DNA of 64,000 nucleotides from assembly GCA_977017645.1 (NCBI GenBank), contig OZ360220.1, forward strand, positions 85,188,001 through 85,252,000, in the 5' to 3' direction. Below, in pieces: positions 7,030-31,000 of the stretch; position 1 is the stretch's first letter, and the number at the start of each line of letters is the position of its first letter. Position numbers and translations under genes: made by a program. The notes under the pieces were generated by a model. It saw only the letters and a list, made by a program, of their open reading frames with translations. It was not told where the DNA came from and did no database searches. Origin of the DNA: Torpedo marmorata (taxonomy: Eukaryota).

Positions 7030-8500
7030 CCACTATTGTTACATGATAAAATACAGACAAATATAACATTTTTAAGCAACATTGCAAACTTAACATCTGG
7101 AAAGGCAATTACATTATCCTTGCCTCTAATATGAGTTATCATTAAATCATATTCCTGCAGAATTAAACTCCAGTTTAACTATCGTCTATTTTTGTTTTTC
7201 ATTTTACTCAAGAACACTAAGGGATGATGGTCAGTATACACAACAAGTGTATACTGTTGTGAGCTGTGCAGATGTAAACATCGAAATGCTACAAAGCCAG
7301 TACAAGGGACAATAATTCTTTCTCTATGGTAGAATAATTATTTTGATGTTCATTGAATTTCTTGGATAAGTAAGCCACTGGATGGTCAATATCATCACAA
7401 CCATTATTTTGTAATAACACTGCTCCCGTAGCTTCATCACTAGCATCTACTGCTAAAGAAAATGGCTTCTCAAAGTCAGGTGACTTAAGCACAGGCTGGT
7501 GACATAAAATGGCTTTCAGTTTACCAAAGGCTTCCTGGCAAAGTTCTGTCCAAACAAACTTTTCACCCTTCTTCAGAAGGTTAGTTAAAGGAAGGGCGAT
7601 ATCAGCAAAATTTTTACAGAACTTTCTATAATACCCTACCATTCCCAAAAATCTTCTGATAGCTTTCTTACCCGTGGGAGCGGGAAACTCAGAAATCGTC
7701 TGAACTTTCACCTGGACAGGCGCCAACTTGCCTTGACCAACAACATAACCAAGATAAGTTACAGTAGCATGGCCAAATTCACTTTTAGCTAAGTTAACAG
7801 TAAGGTTGGCTTTTGAAAGTTTGTCAAACAATTTCTCTAAATCAGAGATATGTGCTTCCCAGGTGTCATTCCCCGTAACCAAATCATCAATATAAGCATT
7901 CATATGCTCCAAACCTTGAATCACAGAATTAATCATTCTTTGGAATGTTCCTGGAGCATTTTTCATTCCAAATGGTAAAACATTGTATTCATATAAACCT
8001 GACGAGGTTACAAATGCAGACATTTCCCTACCTCTGTCTGTTAAGGGAACACACCAGTAACCTTTTAATAAGTCCATCTTCGTAAGAAACTTAACCTTTC
8101 CAACCCTGTCCACACAATCATCCACCCTAGGGATAGGATAAGCATCTGTCTTTGTTACCGCATTAACTTTTCTATAATCAGTGCAAAATCTAACTGTCCC
8201 ATCTGATTTAGGCACCAGGACACAAGGTGAACTCCAATCTGAGGTAGAACGTCTAATAATATCATTCTTTAACATATATTCAATCTCTTGATCTACCAGT
8301 TTACAATTTTCTACATTCATTCGATATGGATGTTGTTTGATAGGTTCTGCATCTCCAACATCAACATCATGACAAGTTATTGGGGTTCTTTTAGGCACAT
8401 CTGGAAACAGGTTCCTAAATTTTAAAAGTAGCTGTTTCATTTGCTTCTTTTCCTGGGGCTGAAGATGAGCCAACTTATCATCCAAATTCTGCAAAATACT
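7030..8500 (-). pseudogene. pol: Reverse transcriptase / RNase H of Gmr1-like element
   Basis: ORF 7289-8599: PIKQHPYR, WSSPCVLVPK, RFCTDYRKVN, DLLKGYW, LPFGMKNAP, YIDD, AVDASD, YSTIEKELL; continues past a stop into YTDHHPL/ADCLSR-like RNase H end. Confidence 0.93.
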
Positions 8501-8599
8501 CAAATTAGACAGACGAACTGGGACAATGTTTTGTTTGACCCTCACAAGAGTCAGCTTGTACCGTCTCATGATCCCTAAACTCCTCTGTTTTATCAACAA

Positions 8600-22620: not shown

Positions 22621-23319
22621 CAAGTATCTTCTTCAGGAATAAATATAGCTGCCTTTAAACCATTAAACCACCTTTGTAGCTGGGAATTAAAATACGTCTG
22701 TAACCTCTTTGATTGTTGCAAGGACTCAGCCAATTCTTTAATATCCTCAGGATAGGACCACTGCTATCCTTACCTTATCTGGCACACATGTGACTCTGGA
22801 CCCAAATTAAGTCATCCTTCTTAATGTTTTTAAGCATGTTCTTGATCTGTGTTTTGTCGACGGTGGCAATGACTTAATGAGAAATGCAATTGAATCTTCC
22901 CTGCTTCTGCTGCTGAAAAGCAGTTAAGGATGGGAAATAAATGCTGGAACAAGTAATGCCCACATCGCTTGAGTGAATAAAAAATCAAACCAATGTCACA
23001 GGTACTACAATGATCCAAGGAAAAGGTTTTGATAGTGGCACATACATCTCATGTTAGAAAAAAATACCGTTTTCCAGAAGTTATGGAAATTCGTATTTTA
23101 GCTCATTTAAAGTAACATAACAGAAGAATTCTTATATTCTACAAGAATGTTGCTAATCTTTGAGTATAGTTGAAGCTTCTATATAAACTTCTGTTTTAGT
23201 TTTTCTTTACTCTGTGACATGGTCAAGAATAACGTTGTGACATGGAATGAAAAGTCACGATAGTTGACTCATTTCTGAATTTGGTGGCTATCAATATCAG
23301 GAGAGTAACTTCTGGTCAG

Positions 23320-23567
23320 TGATATACCTATCAATAACTGACACGAGTCTAGAAGTGCAGGAATTAACAGGCTTTTATTAACAGAATCAAGCCAGGACTA
23401 GCTATGCCTTGACCTGATGATCCCTGCTGGATTGTCCCGGAACTGGGGGAGGAGTTGCTGGCTCAAGGCCTTTATTCCAGGTAAAAGGGGAGGGGTCACC
23501 GGGACAGACAGACAGGTCATGGTCATACCTGCCTCAGGCCACAATACATACAAAGTGGTTTACCACA
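23320..23567 (-). repeat. 3' LTR (248 bp)
   Basis: TGATATACC...TTTACCACA on +, same sequence as 27795-28042. Confidence 0.97.
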
Positions 23568-23582
23568 TTCACCCCTTCTTTT
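23568..23582 (-). other. Polypurine tract
   Basis: - strand AAAAGAAGGGGTGAA directly before TGTGGTAAAC of the 3' LTR. Confidence 0.9.
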
Positions 23583-23664
23583 AGAACAAGTCCGACGGGG
23601 GGGTGAAGTGGATACCGTAGAAAAAAAATACACATATACATAGATAATATACAGTTTTCTTTAT

Positions 23665-26600
23665 TTACAGATCGAGTTTCACCGGCGGCCGGATTTGCCG
23701 CCGTGACCTGCGTAGCGTCAGCGGTGATGGTAGTGGTTGTGGAATGAGGGTACGAGTGGGAAAACGTGATACCTGCGGAGATGGTTGTGGCTGTGGAATG
23801 GGAGTAGGTACAGTAGGGTGGATCTGGGGCTGGTTCGCCTCCTGCCTGGTTAGTGGCCAGACCAGCTGTGACGGAGACAACGTCGTGCTGGGAGGCGGAT
23901 GGGCCGGAGGGGGCAGCTGCGACCCGGCGTTCCCGCTGTCGGGGACCTCTTCAGACGCTCCTGCAGGCGCCAGGTCCCGTATTGACACCGTGTCCTCCCG
24001 CCCGTCGGGGAGAACCACGAATGCGTATTGCGGGTTTGCATGGATCAGCTGCACCCTCTCGACTAAGGGCTCGTACTTGCTACTCCGAAGATGTTTGCGG
24101 AGTAGCACCGGCCCCGGGGACGTCAGCCAGGCAGGGAGTGTAGTTCCGGTGGTCGATTTTCTGGGGAAGGAAAAGATACGTTCGTGAGGGGTAGTGTTAG
24201 TGGCGGTACATAAGAGGGATCGTATAGAGTGGAGGGCGTCCGGGAGAACCTCCTGCCAGCGAGCCACTGGCCACCCTTTTGCTTTGAGGGCCAGTAGTGT
24301 CGCTGTCCATACTGTGGCGTTCTCCCTCTCCACCTGTCCGTTCCCCCGTGGGTTGTACCCCGTGGTCCTGCTGGTAGCGATGCCTCGGGCCTGCAAGTGC
24401 TGTCGCAGCTCCCCACTCATGAACGCGGACCCCCGGTCGCTGTGGACATAGCTGGGGAACCCGAACACGGTGAAAACCTGGTGGAGAGCCTTGATAGCCG
24501 ACGCCGCCGAGGTATCTGGGCAGGGGATGGCAAAGGGGAACCGCGAGTACTCATCGATGATGTTGAGGAAGTACACATTGCGGTTCGTGGATGGAAGGGG
24601 GCCCTTGAAGTCTATACTGAGACGTTCGAACGGGCGGGTGGCTTTGACCAGCTGTGCTCTGTCGGGGCGGTAGTACTGCGGTTTGCATTCCGCACAGACT
24701 CGGCAGCTGCTGGTCATGGTCTTGACCTCATCCAGGGAGAAAGGCAGGTTCCGTGCTTTAACGAAGTGGAACAGCCTGGTAACTCCTGGGTGGCAGAGGT
24801 CATTATGGAGGGAGTATAACCGGTCGATCTGCGCGCTGGCGCACGATCCCCGGGATAGAGCGTCAGGGGGCTCGTTGAGCTTCCCGGGCCGGTAAATGAT
24901 GTCGTAATTGTAGGTGGAGAGTTCTATTCTCCACCTCATGATCTTGTCATTTTTAATTTTACCCCGCTGCTGGCTGTTAAACATGAAAGCGACGGAGCGC
25001 TGGTCCGTCAGCAGGGTAAAATGTTTTCCGGCGAGATAGTGCCTCCAATGCCGAACAGCCTCGACAATGGCCTGGGCCTCTTTCTCTACCGCAGAGTGCC
25101 GAATTTCGGGGCCTTGAAGGGTGCGGGAGAAAAACGCTACCGGTCTTCCCGCCTGGTTGAGGGTAGCAGCCAGTGCGAAGTCCGAGGCGTCACTCTCCAC
25201 CTGAAAAGGTTCAGACTCGTCCACCGCGTGCATCGCTGCTCGGGCGATGTCCCCTTTTATGAGGTCGAAAGCCTCACGTGCCTCCGCTGCCAGGGGAAAC
25301 TTGGTGGATTTGACGAGGGGTCGGGCTTTGTCCGAGTAGTTGGGGACCCACTGCGCATAATAGGAGAAAAACCCGAGGCATCGTTTGAGTGCTTTGGGGG
25401 TAACGGGGATCGGAAGTTCCAACAGGGGGCGCATGCGGTCGGGGTCGGGTCCAATCACCCCGTTTTCCACGACGCACCCCAGGATAGCGAGTCGGGTAGT
25501 CCCGAACACGCATTTCTCCTTATTATATGTGAGGTTCAGCGTCTCGGCCGCCTGTAAGAACTTCCGAAGGTTCCTATCGTGATCCTGGCGGTCATGACCA
25601 CAAATGGTGATGTCGTCCAGGTACGGGAAGGTGGCAGTGAGCTTGAACTGGTCAATGATCCTGTCCATCTCCCTTTGGAACACGGATACCCCATTTGTTA
25701 CCCCGAAGGGGACGCGCAGAAAATGGAATAATCTGCCGTCCGCCTCGAAAGCGGTGTATACTCGGTCCTCCCGGCGGATTGGGAGCTGATGGTAAGCCGA
25801 CTTAAGGTCGATGGTGGAGAACACTTTATATTGGGCAATCTGGTTGACCATATCCGCGATCTTTGGCAGCGGATAGGCATCCAGTTGCGTGAACCGGTTG
25901 ATGGTCTGACTATAGTCCACCACCATCCGGCTCTTAGCCCCGTTCTTCACCACCACTACCTGAGCTCTCCAGGGGCTATTACTGGGTGCAATGATCCCTT
26001 CCCCCAGTAAACGCTGCACCTCCGCCTTAATAAATGCCCTGTCCCCTGTACTGTATCGCCTACTTTTAGTTGCGATGGGCTTACAGTCAGGGGTCAGGTT
26101 GGCGAAGAGTGGCGGGGGTTGGGTCTTTAGCGTGGAGAGACCACAGGTAGTCTGGGGCGTGTTAGTTAAATATTGGGGGTTAGTCACTACGATCGGGGGG
26201 TGGGGCCCATCATAGTGCATGGTGACGCTACGCAGGTGGCTTTGGAAGTCCAAACCCAGCAGTACAGGAGCACACAAACGAGGCATGATTAACAGTGAAA
26301 ATTCTCGGTATTCCGTGCCCTGTACCACTATATTCGCCACACAACCCCCCCGGATGTCTGTTGTGTGCGTTCCAGACGCCATGGCCACCCTCTGGCTTAC
26401 CGGTACAATGGTGAGGCCACAGCGCTGGGCAGTGTCCGGATGGATAAAACTTTCTGTACTGCCTGTGTCGAACAGGCAGGTGGTCTTATGCCCCTCAACG
26501 ATAATGTCCATCATTGACCTGGACAGTTGATGGGGCGCACTCTGGTCCAGCGTCACGGATGCCAGGGTCGAGACGAGGTCTTGATCCGACGAGTCGTCTT

Positions 26601-27762
26601 GATCCGGTGGCAGCTCCCGTAGCTCATACGTGTCGCTACGAGAGGGTGGAGCCGGAAGTGCTGGAAGTGCTGCGGTGAGATTATAAAATGGCCGCGCCGG
26701 AAATGTAGAGATCGGAAATGGCCGCCTCCAGTCCTCGCACGAGGTCTCCGCAGGAAGTGACGTCATGTAAGATGGCCGCCCCCTCCCGTCGCACGTGGCG
26801 CTGCTGGAAACCGGAAGTGCAGTGCGCTGTGATGGCCGCCTCCAGACCTCGCACGAGGTCTCCGCCGGAAGTGGAGTCGAGGAAGATGGTCGCTCCCATA
26901 CCTCGCACGCGGCGCTGCTCGGACCCGTGCGCGACTTGGAGCGGCAGGCCTTAGCATAGTGGCCTTTCTTGCCACAGCTAGAACAAGTCGCGTCTCGGGC
27001 CGGGCAGCGCTTGCGCGGGTGCTTGTCGAGCCCGCAGAAGTAACACTTCTCGGGCTCCCGGGTGATAGCGGCGGCGGTTAACTCACAGGTAGCGGCGGGC
27101 TCTCGGGCCGCGGCGGCAGCGGCCAACTCACGGATAGCGTCGGCGGCGGCAAGCGGGTCCCGGTAGACGGCAGCGGCGGTCGCGTTGCTTGTAGGGCTGA
27201 CGGCTGGGGCGATCCAAGAAGCAGGCTGCGCCTGCATAGCGTCAGCGTTCTTTAGGGCTGAGTCCAGGTTCAGAATGTTCTGGACAGTCGATTTCAGGGT
27301 CAGGTCGGCGTGTTCCAGCAATCGCTGGCGGATGTAGCCTGACCTGATCCCTTTTATGATAGTGTCCCTTGCCAGTATCTCGGAGTGTTGCTCAGCCGTC
27401 AGGGCTCGACAGGCACACGCTCGCACCATTAACATCACATCTTGGATATACTCGGAGACCGACTCTCCGGGTCGCTGGTACCGCTGCGATATCCGGTGCC
27501 TTGCAAAAATCTCGTTCGCAGGCGTCAGGTACAGCGTTTGGAGGGCGACCAAGGCATCCTCAAAAGTCTCACAGTCTCTGACGGCGCCATACACTCGCTT
27601 GCTTACCCTAGACATGAGGATATCGAGTTTCTGCTCGTCAGTAGCTGCTCTGGACGACCTCATGTAGGCTAAGAAGCAGCGTTGCCAAAGTTCAAAATCG
27701 CTAGCAGCGTCTTGGGCCAGGGGGTCGATGTCTAGCTTGTCTGGCTTTAACAAATTCTCCAT
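23665..27762 (-). CDS. gag-pol: Gag-Pol polyprotein, 1365 aa from first ATG (gag, two zinc knuckles, protease, RT, RNase H, integrase)
   Basis: First ATG at 27762 (MENLLKPDKL; the track start at 27819 is a non-ATG codon inside the LTR). CYFCGLDKHPRKRC and CSSCGKKGHYAKAC knuckles, LFDTGS, DLKSAYHQ, PFGVTNG, YLDD, ESDASD, TDQRS, H..CH..CRVC, DFKGP/SDRG/VERE DDE triad; Pro-rich tail with no chromodomain evident. Confidence 0.97.
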   Translation of the reverse strand: MENLLKPDKLDIDPLAQDAASDFELWQRCFLAYMRSSRAATDEQKLDILMSRVSKRVYGAVRDCETFEDALVALQTLYLTPANEIFARHRISQRYQRPGESVSEYIQDVMLMVRACACRALTAEQHSEILARDTIIKGIRSGYIRQRLLEHADLTLKSTVQNILNLDSALKNADAMQAQPASWIAPAVSPTSNATAAAVYRDPLAAADAIRELAAAAAAREPAATCELTAAAITREPEKCYFCGLDKHPRKRCPARDATCSSCGKKGHYAKACRSKSRTGPSSAACEVWERPSSSTPLPAETSCEVWRRPSQRTALPVSSSATCDGRGRPSYMTSLPAETSCEDWRRPFPISTFPARPFYNLTAALPALPAPPSRSDTYELRELPPDQDDSSDQDLVSTLASVTLDQSAPHQLSRSMMDIIVEGHKTTCLFDTGSTESFIHPDTAQRCGLTIVPVSQRVAMASGTHTTDIRGGCVANIVVQGTEYREFSLLIMPRLCAPVLLGLDFQSHLRSVTMHYDGPHPPIVVTNPQYLTNTPQTTCGLSTLKTQPPPLFANLTPDCKPIATKSRRYSTGDRAFIKAEVQRLLGEGIIAPSNSPWRAQVVVVKNGAKSRMVVDYSQTINRFTQLDAYPLPKIADMVNQIAQYKVFSTIDLKSAYHQLPIRREDRVYTAFEADGRLFHFLRVPFGVTNGVSVFQREMDRIIDQFKLTATFPYLDDITICGHDRQDHDRNLRKFLQAAETLNLTYNKEKCVFGTTRLAILGCVVENGVIGPDPDRMRPLLELPIPVTPKALKRCLGFFSYYAQWVPNYSDKARPLVKSTKFPLAAEAREAFDLIKGDIARAAMHAVDESEPFQVESDASDFALAATLNQAGRPVAFFSRTLQGPEIRHSAVEKEAQAIVEAVRHWRHYLAGKHFTLLTDQRSVAFMFNSQQRGKIKNDKIMRWRIELSTYNYDIIYRPGKLNEPPDALSRGSCASAQIDRLYSLHNDLCHPGVTRLFHFVKARNLPFSLDEVKTMTSSCRVCAECKPQYYRPDRAQLVKATRPFERLSIDFKGPLPSTNRNVYFLNIIDEYSRFPFAIPCPDTSAASAIKALHQVFTVFGFPSYVHSDRGSAFMSGELRQHLQARGIATSRTTGYNPRGNGQVERENATVWTATLLALKAKGWPVARWQEVLPDALHSIRSLLCTATNTTPHERIFSFPRKSTTGTTLPAWLTSPGPVLLRKHLRSSKYEPLVERVQLIHANPQYAFVVLPDGREDTVSIRDLAPAGASEEVPDSGNAGSQLPPPAHPPPSTTLSPSQLVWPLTRQEANQPQIHPTVPTPIPQPQPSPQVSRFPTRTLIPQPLPSPLTLRRSRRQIRPPVKLDL
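26645..26915. repeat. In-frame 54-60-nt tandem repeat between zinc knuckles and protease
   Basis: (A/G)ATGGCCGCC-type motif recurs at ~26717, 26771, 26831 and 26885; protein repeat CEVWERP / CEVWRRP / CDGRGRP / CEDWRRP. Confidence 0.85.
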
Positions 27763-27794
27763 TGATCGTATTTCGTTGAAACTGTTAATAAAAT

Positions 27795-28042
27795 TGATAT
27801 ACCTATCAATAACTGACACGAGTCTAGAAGTGCAGGAATTAACAGGCTTTTATTAACAGAATCAAGCCAGGACTAGCTATGCCTTGACCTGATGATCCCT
27901 GCTGGATTGTCCCGGAACTGGGGGAGGAGTTGCTGGCTCAAGGCCTTTATTCCAGGTAAAAGGGGAGGGGTCACCGGGACAGACAGACAGGTCATGGTCA
28001 TACCTGCCTCAGGCCACAATACATACAAAGTGGTTTACCACA
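27795..28042 (-). repeat. 5' LTR (248 bp)
   Basis: Same as 23320-23567; two AATAAA on the - strand. Confidence 0.97.
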
Positions 28043-28065
28043 GTCAGGTAAGACAAATTTCAGTT

Positions 28066-31000
28066 GTTTGCTGCACCAAGACCTGGCTAACAGAGAACAC
28101 ACCGCTATCCGACCAGACGGTTTCACCATTCATAGACTGGATCGGAACTCGGATTCTGGAAAAGGGAGAGGGGGTGGTGAGTGCTTTTTCGTTAATACTG
28201 GGTGGTGTATGGACATTGGAATTATGTCGACCTCCTTCTCTACTGCCTTAGAGCAAATCTCGATTAAATGCAGACCCTTCTATCTACCCCGAGAGTTTTC
28301 ATCAGTGATTCTCACTGGAGTTTATATCCCTCCTGATGCCGATTACAAACAGGCACTTGCGGAGCTGCATGATGTGGTCAATAAACAAGAGACGGCCCAG
28401 CCCGACGCATTACAAATCTTAGTCGGTGACTTTAACCAGGCCTTTGTCAAGAAAACCCTGCTCAACTACCACCAGCATGTAACCTGCTGTACCAGAGGTC
28501 CCAGCACACTCGATCACTGCTACACCAAGAAAAGGAAGGCCTACCGTTCTTTCCCGAGACCGCACTTTGGCAAGTCGGATCACCTGGCTGTGCTCCTTCG
28601 GCCTTCATACAGACAGAGCCTAAAAAGAGAGGCTCCGGAGATCAGGACAGATAGAAGCTGGTCACAGGAGGCTGAAAAATGGTTACAGGACTTTCTTGAG
28701 TCAGCAGATTGGGCTGTGTTCAAGGACTCAGCTGAGAATCTGAACGATTACACCAGGGCTTTCACAGACTTTATCAAAACAGCTGTGGATGAGTGGGTCC
28801 CCACCAAATCGTTCAGGGTTTTCCCCAACCAGAAGCCCTGGATGAACAATGAAATCTGGAACCTGCTGAGAGCCAGATCACAGGCATTTTGTCCGGAGAT
28901 CCAGATCAATACAGAAGGAGCAGGTATGACCTGCGAAAAGCTATCTCCCGTGTGAAGTGGAGATTCCGGATGAAAATGAAAACAACAAGGCACACCCAAC
29001 AGCTGTGGCAGGGCCTAAATGCCATAACCTGTGACAAAACCAAATCCGGTGAAGTAGCAGATGGCAAAGCTTCGCTTCCAGAGGATCTCAATACCTTCTA
29101 CGCCTGATTTGATGACAGTAACAGCGAAGAACCACCCCTCCGCATCCCCACCTCCCCTGATGATCCCATCCTGTCCATATCTGAGGATGACGTGCGTGCT
29201 GCCTTCAGGAGAGTGAATCCAAGGAAAGCATTTGGCCTGGACGGAGTACCTAGCCAAGTATTAAAAATCTATGCTGACCAACTTACCAATGTATTCACGG
29301 ATATCTTCAACATCTCACTCAGGCAGAGCTTGGTACCCACCTGTTTCAAACAGGCGTCAATCATACCAGCGCCCAAGAAGAGTGTAGTAACCTGCCTTAA
29401 TGACTATTGACCAGTAGCTCTTACATCAACAATGATGAAATGTTTTGAAAGGCTGGTGATGAAACATACCAGCTCCTGTCTGAGCGGCGACATGGATAAG
29501 TTCCAGTTCGCCTATCGTAGTAACAGGTCTACCAGGGATGCCATCTCACTGGCTCTACACAAAGCCCTGGAACACCTGGACAGTAAAGATGCATACAACA
29601 GGATGCTCTTTATCGATGACAGTTTGGCAGTTAACACCATCATCCCCTCCAAACTGATCAGCAAACTTCAAGACCTGGGGCTCCCACTGTGTAATTGGAT
29701 CATGGATTTCCTCACCTCCAGACCACAATCAGTGAGGATTGGTAAGAACATCTCCTCCACAATCTCCATCAGTACCGGAGAACCACAGGGCTGCGTTCTT
29801 AGCCCCCTGCTTTACTCACATTACACCTACGACTGTGTGGCTCGGTACGACAATAACACAATCTCCAATTATTTATAAATGGGATTCTAAATTAATATCA
29901 GTAAAAAAGAAAAATTCACCAATTATTAAACATTTGTTAGAAATATGGGGTAAGACGGATAAAGAAATAGGTGGAAAAGGATTGATTTCTTCAAATACGC
30001 TATTATATCAAAATGGACTTATATCATTTACTGTTAATAATCAGTTACTTAAAATTTGGTTTCAAAAAGGTATTAAGAAGATTAGTGATTGTTTTGAAGC
30101 TGTAAAATTTATTACGTTTCAAAGAATGAAAGATAAATTTAATATATCAGATAATACATTTTTAGCTTATTATCAAGTTAAAGCTTTTTTGACTGAGAAA
30201 TTAGGTTATGCCTTGATTCTACCGAGACAAAATGAGTTAGAATTATTAGTTACTAATGGAGATGTCAATAAATTCATTTCTCAAATGTATAAATTGTTTC
30301 AGAGGAAAATGCCTAAAATAGGATTGCATAAATCAAGATTAAAATGGGAATTAGATTTAAATGTAAATATAGATGAAAATCATTGGAAAGATTTATGTAA
30401 ATTAAGTATGACGAACATTATCAATGTTAGATATAGACTAGTACAATATAATTTTTTTCATCAATTATACTTAACACCTAAAAAACTAAAGAAATTTAAT
30501 TCGACATTATCAGGTTTATGTTTTAGATGTAATAGAGAGGAAGGTTCTTTTGTTCATTCTACATGGTTTTGTCCAAAAATTCAAGATTTTTGGTTGAAAG
30601 TTAAAATTTTTTTAGATAAAGTATTTAAGATTACATTTCCAATGGATCCTATGTTATTTTTATTTGGAGATATTAAAAAATTTAGTATTAAGAAGAAATT
30701 AAATATGTATCAAGTAGAATTTTTGCGAATTGCTTTAGCTGTTTCAAAAAAATGCATTGATATTACTTGGAAATCTGATTTAGATTTAGGACTAGAAAGA
30801 TGGCATGCAGAACTTCGTTCGTGTATACCACTTGAAAAAATTACTTATAATTTACGTAATAAATATCATTTTTTCTTGAAAATATGGAGCCCATATATGA
30901 GAGCTGTGGATTTAAGGATTTGAAGATCTCTGGATATCGGATCTGCTGGCATATTTGACCTCCATAATAGAATTAGTTTAGAAGGTATTCCCCTTATTCT

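Follow-up and report, generated by a model that had tools for sequence, protein, structure and literature searches.

Self-priming of reverse transcription is regarded as a trait of the chromovirus relatives of Tf1 and of one plant Copia lineage, and to our knowledge it has been demonstrated only for Tf1 of fission yeast. According to the parts of the published accounts consulted here, the first 11 bases of Tf1 pair with the primer site and RNase H cuts the RNA duplex between bases 11 and 12 (PMC7175516), while the cDNA keeps the primer site copied as 3' single-stranded DNA (PMC11042837). The same self-priming was proposed for Tj1 of S. japonicus (PMC4600332). For the Tcn1 clade (moss) and the TAR lineage of plant Ty1/copia elements (Houba, Osr-1) the prediction rested on a stretch of at least 10 nt that is complementary to the LTR and starts 0-5 nt behind it (PMC6317226).

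How does an animal element compare with these systems? The element described here lies in a window of 64,000 nucleotides from Torpedo marmorata (assembly GCA_977017645.1, contig OZ360220.1, positions 85,188,001 to 85,252,000 of the forward strand), and all coordinates count from the first letter of this whole stretch. As far as the sources consulted describe them, Tf1 and Tf2 of Schizosaccharomyces pombe, Tj1 and the Tf1/sushi elements share with it a primer site complementary to the own 5' LTR and the absence of a tRNA site; in both cases cleavage where an RNA duplex ends would release the 3' OH. It differs from the Tf1/sushi chromoviruses in that its 1365-aa ORF has no Pfam match to a chromodomain or SH3_Tf2-1 and its Gag carries a CCHC knuckle. 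The complementarity from which TAR and Tcn1 were predicted is found here as well; however, on the sections of PMC6317226 consulted, TAR belongs to another superfamily, Tcn1 to the chromoviruses, and both are plant cases resting on prediction, whereas the window element is a Ty3/Gypsy element of an animal. Skipper, of the dictyostelid chromoviruses, resembles the clade described below in lacking TGG and in being pyrimidine-rich behind the LTR but, unlike the clade, is described in the part consulted as having no complementary LTR region (PMC5006619). The names Ronin1-3 occur for pufferfish (PMC2996927, consulted in part), and these Repbase elements, which may be self-primed, are animal Gypsy elements like the clade described here.

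The element and its primer site

The Ty3/Gypsy element occupies 23320-28042 on the minus strand and is bounded by two 248-nt LTRs (TG..CA) with 0 mismatches between them; the 252-nt length given by the repeat finder is 248 nt plus 4 flanking letters. Its main features are the following.

28043..28047, partner 23315-23319, no strand: target site duplication, 5 bp, perfect
27795..28042, minus strand: 5' LTR, 248 nt, TG..CA, identical to the 3' LTR
27848..27859, minus strand: LTR segment complementary to the primer site, predicted 3' end of a self-primer (from pairing and covariation)
27838..27847, minus strand: 5' arm of a predicted inner helix, beginning at the base right after the segment (from the fold; register shared by relatives)
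27801..27810, minus strand: 3' arm of the predicted inner helix, in U5 (from the fold)
27782..27793, minus strand: primer-binding-site position, 1 nt from the LTR, no TGG (from the sequence)
23665..27762, minus strand: single gag-pol ORF, 1365 aa (Gag with CCHC knuckle, protease, RT, RNase H, integrase)
23568..23582, minus strand: polypurine tract with AA at its end, adjoining the 3' LTR (from the sequence)
23320..23567, minus strand: 3' LTR, 248 nt, identical to the 5' LTR

The domain order PR-RT-RNase H-IN between two LTRs is the Ty3/Gypsy arrangement; integrase lies 3' of RNase H, and the order found is not that of Gmr1-type elements, in which integrase precedes RT. Compared with solved RTs, the window RT matches that of Ty3 best (E 4e-52), above those of caulimoviruses and retroviruses. 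The RNase H domain carries its acidic motifs. The single gag-pol ORF includes no env. Between Gag and protease lies a linker with a 114-nt tandem duplication (78% alike, 26697-26924), and this linker is much longer than those of the non-ray relatives. Two further observations concern the surroundings: a LINE endonuclease-like ORF (weak Pfam match) adjoins the element at 28209-28955 on the plus strand, and the insertion target may have been an old LINE; at 7289-8569 on the minus strand an RT/RNase H fragment of another Gypsy element resembles integrase-before-RT elements of the Torpedo genome.

Read on the minus strand, the 5' LTR ends in ..TATCA at 27795 and is followed by one A (27794) and then by the 12-nt primer site. 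Positions 27793-27782 are the exact reverse complement of 27859-27848, and pairing extends to 16 of 18 nt (27776-27793 with 27848-27865) around a loop of 54 nt. No shuffle among 300 of the LTR gave a 12-nt pair (mean 4.0, maximum 8), and none of 200 shuffles of the leader folded as well (z -4.07). In the fold of the leader, the predicted second helix stacks directly on the helix of segment and primer site. An Rfam search found nothing in the leader; its sole match (E 0.95) was below its threshold and within the ORF. A preliminary description of this DNA had reported the missing TGG, the 12-nt complement with its extension and loop, identical LTRs, a perfect duplication, an open reading frame without a chromodomain and an ATG some 30 nt past the LTR. 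All of these, coordinates included, were reproduced, with the ATG at 27762, 33 nt beyond the 5' LTR.

Covariation within and between families

The 6.2 Gb genome was searched for sister copies. The family is young: 40 of 40 scored DNA matches in the genome are at 100%. A TGG at the primer site occurs in 0 of 60 loci of the window family, and in 0 of 90 when a second family, located by means of a stingray protein, is counted as well. Within the stem of the window family one base pair segregates, being T:A in 46 of the 60 loci and C:G in 14, with no mixed case. Genome-wide, 4014 copies fit the pattern when the variable pair is left open, and among 100 listed copies of these, 49 carry C and 51 T (counted by eye). 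Discordant pairs are confined to 7 + 4 copies. The 3' LTR still matches the primer site in 10 of these 11, which confines the change to a single LTR; the simplest account is that it came after insertion. The lone exception (L216) has both LTRs discordant. The 4014 copies are not 4014 independent events, since linkage across 70 nt holds the two sites together once a single compensatory event has occurred. The second family has its own variable pair, matched in 29 of 30 loci, and several families each have their own matched polymorphism in the stem. In about 3 of the 100 listed copies the U5 markers between the paired sites are accompanied by the pair type of the other kind, with the pair still matched. 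Such copies (including L223 and L224) are U5-only recombinants. Some window-family copies (L174-L177, L180) lie within a CCCTAAC-like tandem repeat on small contigs.

Does the pairing reach beyond close copies? Relatives were collected from 80 metagenome loci and 30 divergent loci of the Torpedo genome, 67 of which have a Gag start. In a looser test, with the best CA junction chosen, 51 of the 67 pair over at least 10 nt at offset 1. The other 16 do not; several of them have no LTR sequence in the contig or carry one substitution. There are 22 distinct 10-mers that pair with their own LTR, over a mean of 13.8 nt; with the LTRs of other elements, none of 462 combinations attains 10 nt. The ends of the 22 segments are AATAAA (10), ATTAAA (6), GTTAAA (4), TTTAAA (1) and other (1): 21 end in A's, and 6 have neither AATAAA nor ATTAAA.

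An unbiased test set the ends by TG..CA and the target site duplication alone, allowing 4-6 bp. It kept 29 of 54 LTR pairs (10 from one outside assembly, 19 from the Torpedo genome) and dropped 25 that lacked a clean TG..CA plus duplication. The duplication is 5 bp in all 29, and none of the 29 primer sites starts with TGG. In 27 of these elements, with 11 distinct 10-mers, 12-19 nt pair with the own LTR at offset 1, and for each of the 27, 0 of 300 shuffles reach the observed pairing. The remaining two have one stem substitution each. In all 27 pairing elements the pairing lies 1 nt from the LTR edge and the segment is followed by GCC (25) or ACC (2). The flank of the 3' LTR pairs over at most 7 nt in the 29 elements, and AA precedes the TG of the 3' LTR in 28. 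Of 19 constrained folds of relatives, 16 place the start of the predicted second helix at the base directly behind the segment. Deviant members of the clade also occur: in L134 the segment ends in AAAT without GCC, L126 pairs at offset 2 and L127 has a duplicated primer site.

The compensatory covariation between the bases behind the LTR and the LTR segment that the preliminary description had named as a check is thus found both within and between families, the pairing being kept with different sequences in different ones; the sister copies with a normal TGG site that it had asked about did not appear among the 60 loci or the 29 delimited elements. In one respect it was too narrow. It had spoken of a vertebrate element, and the lineage is not confined to vertebrates: among 17 protein matches the nearest named one is from the stingray Hypanus sabinus, and further ones are from the woodlouse Armadillidium and from Trichinella. 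The viral contigs scanned held no relative. In a tree of 40 RT pieces, which contains no named references and does not place the clade relative to Tf1/sushi, clade members are 45-90% identical to the window RT and one integrase-before-RT element sits on a long branch outside the clade; 5 loci had no usable RT. Searches of the Torpedo genome with PF24626 led to integrase-before-RT elements, of which 12 were taken, and PF00385 gave 15 chromodomain matches.

Run-on junctions and the direction of copying

Some copies carry a complement that runs past 12 nt into the LTR sequence; there are 68 such junctions in the window family and 16 in the second family. The 68 fall into four groups. In 19, which are otherwise ordinary elements, the same double change extends the stem to 18 nt, on 12 haplotypes, and three of the backgrounds of these converted copies also occur unchanged. 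Another 4 show a 19-nt pairing, which may be the normal state of a subfamily. Partial run-ons of 24-101 nt followed by a jump make up 13, and in 32 the run-on reaches the first base of the LTR. The second family divides into 6 partial and 10 full run-ons. The reverse change, an LTR altered to match the primer side, gave 2 matches, both in one rearranged copy, and was found in no ordinary LTR of the family. These junctions point to one thing: a plus strand whose end has reached the primer site goes on to copy LTR sequence, and this has happened repeatedly and in a single direction.

What was the template? Full-length run-ons (42 of the 84 junctions) need a DNA template, by fold-back of plus-strand DNA. 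The same holds for 4 of the 19 partial run-ons, which pass the predicted transcription start (78 and 101 nt in one family; 61 and 127 nt in the other). The shorter ones may have arisen by the same DNA route and need not have copied an RNA primer. Since the full-length class needs a DNA template, the aberrant copies alone do not prove an RNA self-primer.

The full run-ons (32 + 10; for example L286, L300 and L343) have an inverted U3 as the element end, and in many of them the upstream LTR is truncated and joined to inverted internal sequence. These insertions are a recurrent class of integrated hairpin products. Two loci (L215, L223) are tandem elements with one LTR in common, as in the integrase-independent insertion of Tf1 described in the consulted part of PMC11042837.

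Origin of the primer

That the pairing is real is strongly supported, and it would be a variant of the known LTR-based self-priming. As the site lies next to the LTR edge without TGG, varies between families and always matches the own LTR, the element's own RNA is the likely primer, and self-priming in some form is highly probable on this sequence evidence. Which RNA end would serve? Two motifs in the LTR bear on this.

27944..27952, minus strand: predicted TATA-like box, containing AATAAA
27915..27921, minus strand: initiator-like motif, predicted transcription start 27919, 32 nt from the TATA-like box

The TATA-like box is the motif GAATAAAGG, which is invariant in 14 of 14 aligned LTRs of the Torpedo genome. 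Of 31 LTRs the pattern missed 9, and among the 22 scored, 21 have an initiator 32 nt behind the box; by eye, no such TATA-like/initiator pair is seen in the non-ray LTRs. From initiator to predicted cut there are 50-73 nt across families and 72 nt in the window element. In three of the 19 partial run-ons, drawn from both families, the end point falls no more than 1 nt from the predicted start (72 and 73 of 72; 52 of 53). When the predicted start is slid along, 4 of 141 offsets reach three such ends; counting two like copies as one leaves 1 of 141. With three events, and with short ends denser anyway, this is a hint and not a map. In murine leukaemia virus an AATAAA-type sequence is able to act as a TATA box in the LTR. 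The TATA-like box here, itself an AATAAA, could be a poly(A) signal.

The constant feature of the segment is ..AAA followed by GCC or ACC, while AATAAA is variable. The preliminary description had proposed a primer internal to R/U5 that ends in the poly(A) signal. Its internal position gains indirect support from the promoter motifs and the run-on ends; the ending does not hold generally, with AATAAA in only 10 of the 22 segments. On the same count the masking of the 5'-LTR poly(A) signal by the stem, also suggested there, would be at most a side effect, and as the sole purpose of the stem it is rejected. Another candidate, in which the poly(A) tail together with a further CTGTTAAT of the LTR would form the primer, was rejected because sister families do not have that duplicate.

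We lean towards an internal primer: where Tf1 uses the 11 nt at the 5' terminus of its RNA, this element would prime with the 3' end of a longer capped fragment. Transcription would start at 27919, and the leader would fold so that the segment pairs with the primer site and the second helix stacks on it. The RNA would then be cut at the junction of the two helices, between ..AAA and GCC (between 27848 and 27847, give or take one base), probably by the element's RNase H by analogy with Tf1; should integrase remove 2 nt here too, as at the opposite end with its AA before TG, the cut would fall one base earlier. The capped 5' fragment, 72 nt in the window element, would stay bound by its last 12-16 nt and prime minus-strand DNA. 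Plus-strand synthesis would copy into the primer, so that the primer site is rewritten from the LTR and the two are kept in step.

The internal primer has to be weighed against self-priming in the manner of Tf1, in which the packaged RNA starts just before the segment and its 5'-terminal 12-20 nt are the primer. Tf1 and Tj1 set a precedent for it (PMC7175516, PMC4600332, as far as consulted), many families show by eye a pyrimidine-rich, initiator-like stretch 16-20 nt before the cut, and the 19 converted copies stop at 18 nt, though ordinary pairing resumes there too. Such a start, however, has no TATA-like motif 30 nt before the segment, the invariant one standing 32 nt before the farther initiator, and 11 of the 13 partial run-ons of the window family lie at 24-73 nt, two of them at 72-73, which makes this reading unlikely. 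We consider it rather less probable that the 3' copy of the repeat supplies the primer, the own or a co-packaged RNA being cut or trimmed at its 3' end to the A run of the poly(A) signal and pairing at the 5' site. Being placed immediately upstream of the predicted poly(A) site, the segment is present at the RNA 3' end also; its run of A's in 21 of 22 cases fits, and since the 3' copy is the source of this segment in progeny LTRs, a tight match would be expected. Yet an extra trimming step would be required and the acceptor of first-strand transfer would be occupied; for the stacked inner helix, formation in cis at the 5' LTR is the simplest case, and some relatives (L093, L091) have a separate AATAAA or ATTAAA downstream of the segment.

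Could the stem instead be regulatory, masking the 5' poly(A) signal or acting in packaging or translation, with a host RNA or tRNA fragment as the primer? It can form at the 5' LTR only, 16 of the 22 segments end in AATAAA or ATTAAA, and DNA fold-back by itself could yield the run-on copies. But a primer must pair beside the LTR edge, and precisely these bases vary from one to another of the 22 segments and, where they segregate within a family, the LTR varies with them. The absence of TGG from all 29 delimited elements, the 6 of 22 segments with neither hexamer and the pairing that ends 1 nt from the edge in 27 of 27 also speak against it. Priming by half a tRNA, that is by an internal tRNA fragment, is argued against by the 22 different site sequences. 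A purely regulatory stem is therefore very improbable.

A broader proposal can be made tentatively from the internal primer: self-priming may have evolved independently in a Gypsy clade that is widespread in animals and not related to the Tf1/sushi chromoviruses, through one cut at a conserved two-helix junction (..AAA then GCC). The whole capped 5' leader of 50-73 nt, ending in or at the poly(A) signal, would be the primer, and with the site rewritten every cycle the primer sequence would be free to drift between families. In the literature searched, sources consulted in part and with Repbase Reports and subscription journals outside its scope, we found no description of the priming of this clade. 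Self-primed Gypsy elements of animals may be described in Repbase, perhaps under the name Ronin, and the present clade is possibly named there.

What the Torpedo genome adds to earlier knowledge is a record at population level, in which the pair is almost always matched at insertion and copying runs one way, together with an internal primer as a prediction. Annotation tools that require a tRNA site would miss such priming. With a family this large, reverse-transcription errors have left a natural record, from which the direction of copying can already be read and a transcription start is suggested, so that RNA-end mapping in the host would put the mechanism to a direct test. If the proposal is true, priming would be free of control by host tRNA fragments, and with a second, very successful clade in animals, tRNA-free priming would be a recurrent solution.
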